IMG/VR virus record: IMGVR_UViG_2703718674_000012 | Direction: 5' to 3' (one strand) | DNA: 7,903 nucleotides | Origin: a virus | Lineage: Duplodnaviria > Heunggongvirae > Uroviricota > Caudoviricetes | Shown here: positions 1 to 7,903 of the stretch, piece by piece | Numbering within the stretch: position 1 is the first letter of the stretch | How the letters are laid out: the number at the start of each line of letters is the position of its first letter | Translations under genes and position numbers: made by a program | The notes under the pieces: model-generated | Seen by the model: the letters and a program-made list of their open reading frames with translations, nothing else | The model's database searches: none | Told to the model about the DNA's origin: nothing

Positions 1-201
1 CTGCTTCATAGCCTGCTTCTCCTTGACCTTTCGGTCCGTAAGAGGCAATCTATATGTGACGAGCATATAGGGGCCTCACTTCGATTTATAGTCGGGTGGG
101 GCTTTTATCTATCTGCCGTTGGTGTTCATGCCCGAGGCAGATAGCCTCAAGCACCCGCAGCAATCCTACTTAACTCTGCCGTTACAGCAAACCGTTTTCG
201 C

Positions 202-3397: not shown

Positions 3398-4225
3398 GGT
3401 TTACCCCTTTGCTGACTGGTTTAACCTGCGCCCTGACGTGATTTACGTGACGGGCGAATTTCTGCTCCCACTGAATCTGCGTAAACACTTTCCCCTCCGC
3501 TGCCCAGTAGTCCCGGAAGGCGGCAAGTTCAGCAGGTGTAAATTCTGTCTCCGGCAAAGCCATCCCCCACAACGCAGCCCGTCGTCGAAAATCCCGTGAC
3601 GGATACCAGCTATCGCTCATCGGGAATTTTCCGATGGGTTCGCTCAGGCCATACAGGAATACAGGGGGGCTGCCTGTAACGACAAAACTTCCTGCTCACT
3701 GGTCGGAGCACTCTCGCGTGCGTTATGTGTGGGGTTTAGATCTTTGGGTTCCTTTGGGTTCCGTGATCCGTTTTTGGGTGTCTTTGATGGAAAATTTGGG
3801 TGTCTTTGGTTATTTTCCATGCAGCTAAGAGTTCTGTTTTTGGGTCTGTTTTGTGCTGAAACATAACCATTTTCGGTACTGTTTTTATTAACAGCACCAA
3901 TTGTACCCACCTTTAAAGACTCCCGTTTTTGGGTGTATTCAGGCTCGGCAACACTTTCTTCTACACCGATAAGTCGGTACACCACAATTTGCTTTGTTCT
4001 GCCTTTTCTCTCACCGGTATCAACAATTAACCCAATCTCCATCAGGTGTCGTAAGCTGTCCTGCACAGTCTTTTTGTTCAGTTCCGTTACTTCTGCCAGT
4101 GCAGATACAGACGGGTATGCACACAAATCGGCACCGCACATATCAGCAAGCCAGGTCAATACTGACTTACTGGATGAACTGCCGGTTTTCACCTTTTTAG
4201 CCCATCGTAGTGCATCGATACTCAT
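3186..4225 (-). pseudogene. Replication initiator O-like (N-terminal HTH, iteron-encoded linker, C-terminal DnaT-like domain), split by a frameshift at a C6 tract (plus-strand G6 at 3664-3669)
   Basis: N-terminal part: ATG 4225 with RBS AGGGGG, HTH-like MSIDALRWAKKV...LTWLADMCG...LIGV, frame ends at stop 3644-3646. C-terminal part: a different frame is open from 3695 to 3186 and encodes PIGKFPMSDSWYPSRDFRRRAALWGMAL...AEGKVFTQIQWEQKFAR, which resembles the C-terminal domain of E. coli DnaT as I recall it. Adding one C to the C6 tract joins the two frames as ...SLQAAPPVFLYGLSEPIGKFPMSDSW... Confidence 0.6.
3743..3936. repeat. Iteron cluster plus AT-rich tract; candidate origin of replication inside the O-like gene
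   Basis: TTTGGGT core at 3743, 3753, 3773, 3795, 3839 and 3928. Two perfect 14-mers TTTGGGTGTCTTTG at 3773-3786 and 3795-3808. Tandem TTTGGGTTCC at 3743-3762. AT-rich segment about 3810-3900. This layout matches lambda ori lying within O (established knowledge). Confidence 0.6.
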
Positions 4226-7271: not shown

Positions 7272-7327
7272 TTTCTGGTGACGTTTGGCGGCATCTGTTT
7301 GCCCATGAACTGATGTCCGCCCTTTTT
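7272..7327 (+). ncRNA. dicF: DicF small RNA (Hfq-dependent cell-division inhibitor sRNA) with its intrinsic terminator
   Basis: 5' TTTCTGGTGACGTTTGGCGG matches the K-12 DicF 5' region as I recall it. Terminator stem GGCGGCAT / ATGTCCGCC (about 7287-7321) followed by TTTTT at 7323-7327. Located about 145 nt upstream of the dicB core, as in Qin. Confidence 0.75.
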
Positions 7328-7391
7328 AAAGTGAATTTTGTGATGCAGTGAATGCGGCTAAGCGCACGCGGAACAGTTAAAGCTAAAAACA

Positions 7392-7658
7392 GTGTTATGG
7401 GTGGATTCTCTGTATCCGGCGTTAATTGTTAACTGGTTAACGTCACCTGGAGGCACCAGGCACCGCATCACAAAATTCATTGTTGAGGAAATTAATACGT
7501 CTGAAGGTTGTTTTGAAATTGGTGTCACTATCAGTAACCCTGTATTTACTGAAGATGCCATTAACAAGAGAAAACACGAACGGGAGTTATTAAATAAAAT
7601 ATGCATTCTTTCAATGCTGGCCCGTTTACGTCCGATACAAAAAGGATGCTGGCAATGA
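7392..7658 (+). CDS. dicB: DicB cell-division inhibitor; start codon uncertain (conserved core from about 7491, only GTG 7392 or 7401 in frame)
   Basis: Core NTSEGCFEIGVTISNPVFTEDAINKRKHERELLNKICILSMLARLRPIQKGC matches K-12 DicB as I recall it. No in-frame ATG between the upstream stop (7359-7361) and the core. Stop TGA 7656-7658 overlaps the ydfD ATG (ATGA). Confidence 0.75.
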   Translation: MLWVDSLYPALIVNWLTSPGGTRHRITKFIVEEINTSEGCFEIGVTISNPVFTEDAINKRKHERELLNKICILSMLARLRPIQKGCWQ

Positions 7659-7846
7659 ATACAGCATTTGCACTTGTTCTGACAGTTTTTCTTGTTTCCG
7701 GAGAGCCAGTTGATATTGCAGTCAGTGTTCACAGGACAATGCAGGAGTGTGTGACTGCAGCAACCGAACAGAAAATTCCCGGTAACTGTTACCCTGTCGA
7801 TAAAGTTATTCACCAGGATAATAACGAAATCCCGGCAGGTCTTTAA
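7655..7846 (+). CDS. ydfD: YdfD-like small protein (described in the literature as a lysis protein in K-12 Qin)
   Basis: 63-aa ORF starting at the ATG within ATGA, overlapping the dicB stop. MNTAFALVLTVFLVSGEPVDIAVSVHRTMQEC...PGNCYPVDKVIHQDNNEIPAGL matches K-12 YdfD as I recall it, with identical length. Confidence 0.8.
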   Translation: MNTAFALVLTVFLVSGEPVDIAVSVHRTMQECVTAATEQKIPGNCYPVDKVIHQDNNEIPAGL

Positions 7847-7903
7847 AACAGTTCCGTAATAAACATCCGATTTCATTCTTATATGCCAGCAATGGCAGGG
7901 ATT

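Follow-up and report, generated by a model that had tools for sequence, protein, structure and literature searches.

The dicB gene carried by the stretch of DNA analysed here (termed the window, 7,903 nucleotides) is very probably a deletion allele, null or strongly hypomorphic, of a known prophage toxin gene. It is most likely, in effect, a 5'-truncated pseudogene, dead or crippled, rather than a gene that starts in an unusual way. Alignment with intact alleles located a small lesion at the start of the gene which takes away the initiation codon and the first codons and leaves both the Shine-Dalgarno sequence (SD) and the remainder of the coding sequence in place.

The annotation transferred from identical RefSeq records, together with Rfam and Pfam matches, identifies the 7.9-kb window as belonging to an E. 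coli O157 lambdoid prophage, of which it forms the immunity/early-left region. From the left edge onward the transferred annotation gives a hok/sok module, the paa adhesin gene, decayed replication genes, ydaT, a switch made of cro-like and cI-like genes (dicC/dicA-type), ydfC and two small hypothetical genes. The right part carries the DicF small RNA, the DicB homologue and an overlapping DUF1482 (ydfD-like) gene, forming a dicF-dicB-ydfD-like operon. The context of dicB is the expected one, with dicF upstream, the start of DUF1482/ydfD overlapping its stop codon (ATGA, an overlap present in 10 of the 10 contexts compared) and a location in the immunity-left operon of a lambdoid prophage. The hok/sok module is of the hokD type; its sok antitoxin RNA is full-length (window 7-156, minus strand; Rfam RF01794, 103.9 bits) and its hok toxin gene extends past the left edge of the window. 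The DnaT-like replication gene is annotated as frameshifted in strain 493/89, and in strain PV15-279 it carries an IS1203 insertion (L001 2956-4266, corresponding to window ~3467-3469) that is absent from the window; the fimbrial gene (window ~1264-1797) is also a pseudogene. Decay thus affects this prophage at several places. An antisense open reading frame of 172 aa (7358-7876), with no family match and no RefSeq annotation, was treated as spurious.

The neighbours of dicB call for a few remarks. DicF matches the Rfam model RF00039 over its full length with a score of 43.5 bits (E = 4.2e-08), which is below the gathering score of 48, so that threshold-based annotation would miss this copy. 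Its sequence is identical to that of strain 493/89, which is the common O157 variant, and departs from the K-12 DicF sequence in the loop of the terminator stem. A consensus terminator/promoter scan of the window returned no credible internal promoter and missed the DicF terminator. The DUF1482 frame is open from an in-frame ATG at 7601 inside dicB (7601-7846, plus strand, 81 aa), the RefSeq form being 63 aa long and starting at ATG 7655. This gene has its own AGGA, and its coupled expression may drop when dicB is no longer translated.

When the window was compared with NZ_CP038412.1 (E. coli O157 strain 493/89), the two sequences were found to share an identical common prefix of 7,489 nt and an identical common suffix of 412 nt. 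The sole difference in this prefix/suffix comparison is the replacement of 29 nt of the reference, CGCGATAATGGAAACGTTATTACCAAACG, by AA. When 5,426 complete E. coli genomes were searched with the same region, O157 genomes matched at 100% identity, in two pieces spanning 27 extra bases. The reference and K-12 read CATTGTTGAGGA-CGCGATA-ATG-(G/A)AA-ACG-TTA-TTA-CCA-AAC-GTT-AAT-ACG, that is, in the intact order, the SD GAGGA, the 7-nt spacer CGCGATA and the ATG of the 62-aa dicB annotated by RefSeq. The 29 nt comprised the 7-nt spacer and the ATG, then codons 2-8 and the opening base of codon 9; this last codon is restored by the replacement AA as AAT (Asn9). The resulting junction reads GAGGAAATTAATACG. 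With 27 nt lost on balance, the frame upstream remains in phase with the dicB core. The lesion can be read either as two in-frame deletions of 12 nt and 15 nt or as a 27-nt deletion plus CG>AA. In the former case the 12-nt part is flanked by GGA microhomology and the 15-nt part is without microhomology; no local template that could have acted as template-switch donor for GAGGAAATTAATA was found anywhere in the window.

The dicB core scores 107.9 bits against Pfam PF05358 (cut-off 27) and 111.3 bits against NCBIfam NF049927 (cut-off 100), and both DicB profiles match at profile positions 7-62 only (of 62), residues 1-8 being absent. The intact allele scores 132.7 bits. The window copy thus does not encode a full-length DicB of ~62 aa with the N-terminus M-(E/K)-T-L-L-P-N-V, nor does it offer an ATG 7 nt after the SD GAGGA; the SD is kept and the codon found 7 nt downstream is ACG. 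A preliminary description of this DNA had given the K-12 gene as starting with ATG AAA ACG, which the K-12 alignment bears out, but it took ATT GTT GAG GA for the sequence that had replaced this start. That stretch is in fact native 5' leader containing the true SD, and it is identical in K-12 and O157. The converse possibility, namely that this K-12 start was wrong and that a GTG start is the normal arrangement, does not agree with the K-12 alignment, which reveals a deletion allele instead. The features discussed here and below are collected in the following table.

Table. Coordinates of the features bearing on dicB (positions in the window, except for the last line)
Feature	Position	Strand	Basis
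DicF small RNA, O157-type variant, with terminator stem and T-run	7273..7322	+	Rfam RF00039; upstream in the dicB operon
Structured dicF-dicB leader	7330..7481	+	RNA fold -60.3 kcal/mol, z -2.5
In-frame TAA bounding the upstream open frame	7359..7361	+	Codon list
GTG 7392 and GTG 7401	7392..7403	+	Only canonical in-frame ATG/GTG/TTG before the core; without SD; within structure
Native dicB SD GAGGA, retained	7485..7489	+	Reference GAGGA-CGCGATA-ATG
Lesion junction, AA in place of 29 nt	7490..7491	+	Comparison with NZ_CP038412.1 and alignments
dicB remnant, codons 9-62 (N9...Q62), and TGA stop at 7656-7658	7494..7658	+	Pfam PF05358, NCBIfam NF049927, alignment
ACG (Thr10)	7497..7499	+	Position 7497 corresponds to the reference ATG; SD 7 nt upstream
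DUF1482 (ydfD-like) gene	7655..7846	+	Pfam PF07358, 87 bits; RefSeq WP_001090200.1
13-nt-deletion dicB pseudogene	L004 401-460 (NZ_CM147699.1); also NZ_CM147700.1, NZ_CM147701.1, NZ_CM142823.1		Marked as pseudogene by the NCBI pipeline

Of the 5,426 complete E. coli genomes, 4,283 contain the intact 81-nt start region, which occurs 8,100 times in all. Thirteen of the 14 dicB-bearing loci compared read GAGGACGCGATAATG(G/A)AAACG followed by an intact dicB, the fourteenth being a pseudogene with a 13-nt deletion. In ten loci that share one DUF1482 protein but differ in their other neighbours, a 62-aa DicB with the same spacing and the intact start sequence was present without exception (10/10). 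The deleted junction, used as a query in lengths of 50, 30 and 20 nt, was absent from all 5,426 complete E. coli genomes, and none was detected in phage records, plasmids, GTDB species representatives, IMG/VR viral contigs or JGI metagenomes; the single 20-mer match (L005, a metagenome) proved to be an unrelated chance match. At the protein level, no record of the 88-aa and 85-aa products expected from the two GTGs was found, and some 15 billion called proteins contained no instance of the junction. A set of 5.8 billion clustered proteins yielded 113 DicB homologues, of which the closest retains ...VEDAIMETLL...; among the 22 whose sequences were read, those called from upstream starts read ...KFIVEDAIMETLL... 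and none carries the junction. Since the junction is absent from all these collections and its products are unrecorded, the allele is either private or not natural. It is a previously unrecorded allele, and prophage gene decay is an already known kind of event. The earlier proposal that the copy might possess a functionally meaningful, attenuated or non-canonical start finds no support in a 29-to-2 nt lesion that is absent from every collection searched and affects a gene whose SD-ATG arrangement is so widespread.

The same absence from databases leads us to entertain, as an unlikely but real possibility, that the lesion does not belong to a living strain but arose as an error of sequencing or assembly, or through an edit of the sequence, intended or accidental, the real locus carrying an intact dicB of the 493/89 type. 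This explanation concerns the origin of the lesion and not its consequence, and it is compatible with a null or hypomorphic allele. It draws its weight from the perfect identity elsewhere, the remaining 7.9-kb window being 100.0% identical to one public genome, and from the complexity of the change, which is no single clean deletion and for which the 15-nt part shows no microhomology and the window no local template. On the other hand, natural small deletions are found at this exact spot and elsewhere in the 5' part of dicB (P0076, see below), the loss of a toxic, redundant prophage gene is to be expected, and the sequence itself bears no mark of artificiality.

Whatever the origin of the lesion, the remaining initiation signals could be examined. 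Upstream of the core the frame is open from 7362 to 7655, as it is in intact alleles. In agreement with the preliminary description, no canonical start is found between the in-frame TAA and the core other than GTG 7392 and GTG 7401. Its remark that neither has an SD is confirmed by the best pairing with the anti-SD of 16S rRNA, which amounts to -0.1 and +0.6 kcal/mol for the two GTGs versus -5.9 to -6.2 kcal/mol for the native dicB site. Both codons are also present in K-12 and in 493/89, whose dicB is annotated from the downstream ATG, and both are embedded in the leader, where opening costs about 14 kcal/mol. The leader fold is multi-branched and a 17-bp closing helix (7330-7346 / 7465-7481) encloses the two GTGs as well as a hairpin carrying the motif GGAGG (7449-7453). 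This motif, which is indeed followed in frame by ATC 7467 and ATT 7479, had been considered the only strong SD-like sequence of the region; in this the true SD had been overlooked, and GGAGG itself lies within a hairpin at 7446-7460 (CCUGG 7446-7450 / CCAGG 7456-7460), the ATC and ATT codons sitting in the 3' arm of the closing helix. The upstream part of the leader folds identically in the intact 493/89 reference. Because these leader features are unchanged in functional alleles annotated from the ATG, they indicate nothing special about the window copy.

The leader has some interest of its own. Its 17-bp helix is perfect, long-range and shared with the 493/89 reference, and looks like a possible RNase III substrate; no description of it was found in the literature examined. 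In addition, the Rfam family STnc100, a Salmonella 'sRNA' family, gives a sub-threshold match spanning the whole leader (7311-7517, plus strand; 33.6 vs 47 bits, E = 1.7e-05), which suggests that STnc100 is the homologous prophage leader and not an independent sRNA. In this sub-threshold match the same hairpins are present and the GGAGG hairpin aligns with a conserved, compensated stem.

At the junction itself, the net shift of 27 nt brings codon 10, ACG, to the exact position formerly occupied by the ATG. This ACG is the only site with SD support, with an opening energy of 8.4 kcal/mol; ATT 7491, separated from the SD by 1 nt, is unusable, and the next in-frame ATG corresponds to Met75 of the open reading frame and would leave 14 residues. 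ACG 7497 is thus the only plausible residual initiation site, and at most trace initiation is to be expected from it. Initiation in E. coli relative to AUG has been reported to reach roughly 0.02-3% for AUA, AUC, AUU and CUG and about 0.01-1% for other codons, including ACG, which is placed there in the non-near-cognate class (bioRxiv 10.1101/063800). An ACG-initiated protein with an N-terminal Met was detected in E. coli (bioRxiv 10.1101/063800).

The residues removed by the lesion are among those on which DicB activity depends. In the alignment of the DicB family, M1 and T3-V8 are at least 90% conserved, position 2 alternating between E and K. Yang et al. 2016 reported that all N-terminal truncations from deltaN2 to deltaN26 lost DicB lethality (PMC4967827). 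When over-expressed, truncated DicB was weakened but not abolished, being mildly inhibitory with MinC binding reduced but detectable; DicB activity was weakened by the L5A substitution and masked by fusing MBP or EGFP to the N-terminus (PMC4967827). The conceivable products of the window copy are a deltaN9 protein initiated at ACG or the core preceded by a 32-residue leader-encoded extension initiated at a GTG. As N-terminal residues are needed for toxicity (PMC4967827), both should be strongly attenuated, and as M1-V8 are removed by the lesion, even non-canonical initiation would give a crippled protein. Strong attenuation of MinC-dependent division inhibition is predicted for the window copy from the published truncations. 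A sequence search of the PDB for a solved DicB structure returned nothing relevant, and an AlphaFold2 model of DicB built on a 25-sequence alignment had low confidence (pLDDT 64, ~48 for the N-terminal 20 residues) and gives nothing firm on the N-terminus.

From the SD and structure analysis and from published mutagenesis, we infer that both expression and activity of the window dicB would be lost or nearly so. We propose that a small complex lesion removed the translation start of dicB in one lambdoid prophage copy of an O157 strain and that the 62-aa DicB would no longer be made, no competent initiation site being left. The upstream GTGs, without SD and buried in the leader, would contribute little and the retained SD, now facing ACG, would direct trace protein synthesis at most. 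Any product would be without the conserved M-E-T-L-L-P-N-V required for the lethal division block, which would make the allele a null or a hypomorph. Trace synthesis of the deltaN9 protein is possible, the deletion being in frame and the SD standing at its native spacing from a near-cognate ACG.

Such a trickle is the starting point of another explanation, namely that the allele is functionally attenuated, the SD GAGGA driving low-level initiation at ACG 7497 or ATT 7491 so that small amounts of a shortened DicB fulfil a biological role. The preserved SD, the in-frame ACG exactly 7 nt downstream with its low opening energy, the precedent of an ACG-started protein in E. coli (bioRxiv 10.1101/063800) and the MinC binding and mild inhibition retained by over-expressed truncated DicB (PMC4967827) all speak for it. 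We nonetheless consider it improbable, given the reported efficiency of the ACG class (bioRxiv 10.1101/063800), the 1-nt distance separating ATT 7491 from the SD, a product without M1-V8, including the L5 needed for activity, and an arrangement that is a one-off, without conservation. Very improbable, in our opinion, is an extended protein of 88 or 85 aa whose translation would begin at GTG 7392 or GTG 7401 and run across the leader into the DicB core. The frame is indeed open, in intact alleles too, and some database 'DicB' entries of 94-114 aa are annotated from upstream starts; but anti-SD pairing at the GTGs is close to 0 kcal/mol, the codons lie inside a structure closed by 17 bp, RefSeq annotates dicB of both K-12 and O157 from the internal ATG, N-terminal fusions mask DicB activity (PMC4967827) and no such product is recorded. 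Finally, we give hardly any credence to the notion that the lesion is a selected detoxifying allele whose deltaN9 trickle would bind MinC without blocking division, either in a non-lethal role (for instance phage exclusion) or by buffering, through competition for MinC, the intact DicB of other prophages of the same genome.

A null or hypomorphic allele would probably be of limited consequence to its host. O157 genomes carry several dicBF loci (PMC5069750), and a genome search found 5 intact dicB start regions in strain PV15-279. With several dicBF loci in O157, losing one of them is probably neutral, or mildly beneficial, and the allele, if real, would add another example of a decaying toxic gene that is redundant among prophages and would matter little in itself. 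Its wider meaning lies in the dicB 5' end as a recurrent site of small inactivating deletions and in annotation, since gene callers would report the window copy as an 85-88-aa 'DicB' starting at a spurious GTG. The stretch preceding the dicB ATG is an open frame in every allele seen. Public databases contain many 'DicB' entries called from upstream with an internal ...EDAIMETLL... kept, for example P0002, P0005, P0007, P0010, P0029 and P0048 (90-114 aa). As they still contain this sequence, their starts are probably mis-called, and the open upstream frame probably explains the entries of 94-114 aa.

Comparison with known systems places the window copy apart from genes with genuine non-canonical starts. 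Conservation of the AUU start and production of a full-length protein characterise infC and pcnB (bioRxiv 10.1101/063800). The only resemblance is an SD followed by a codon other than AUG, GUG or UUG, the kind of mechanism envisaged in the preliminary description; in the window a unique deletion has created this situation and any protein would be truncated, the junction occurs in 0 of the 5,426 genomes and the homologues have an ATG. As a one-off arrangement, the window dicB is therefore unlike infC and pcnB. By contrast, the dicB of 493/89 (WP_000449192.1) and of other O157 lambdoid prophages shares with the window its flanks, dicF, leader, SD, codons 9-62 and overlapping DUF1482, and differs only in having the 29 nt with spacer, ATG and codons 2-8 where the window has AA. 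The K-12 dicB of the Qin/Kim cryptic prophage, which encodes a MinC-dependent inhibitor of division and whose translation begins at an internal in-phase ATG, has in common with the window the order ydfC ... dicF, dicB, ydfD, a leader and core ~94-95% identical and the in-frame upstream open frame with its GTG codons; it differs by the presence of ATG AAA ACG TTA TTA CCA AAC GTT before AAT ACG, and substitutions in the C-terminal tail distinguish the alleles.

Further parallels are natural deletion alleles of dicB itself. The pseudogene represented by NZ_CM147699.1, and shared by three related isolates, lost 13 nt through slippage between two 8-nt direct repeats, AAACGTTA, located immediately behind the ATG. 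Like the window copy, it has a small disabling deletion at the 5' end of dicB, overlapping the interval lost in the window; it is a clean repeat-mediated frameshift which keeps the ATG, whereas the window shows an in-frame 29-to-2 nt change in which the ATG is lost. P0076 (66 aa, from NCBI E. coli) is a deletion allele formed between two EDAI-coding repeats, which joins the leader frame ...KFIVEDAI to the internal ...EDAI(N/K)... with residues 1 to ~31 gone. In view of the natural 13-nt slippage pseudogene, the 5' end of dicB seems to be a deletion hot spot.
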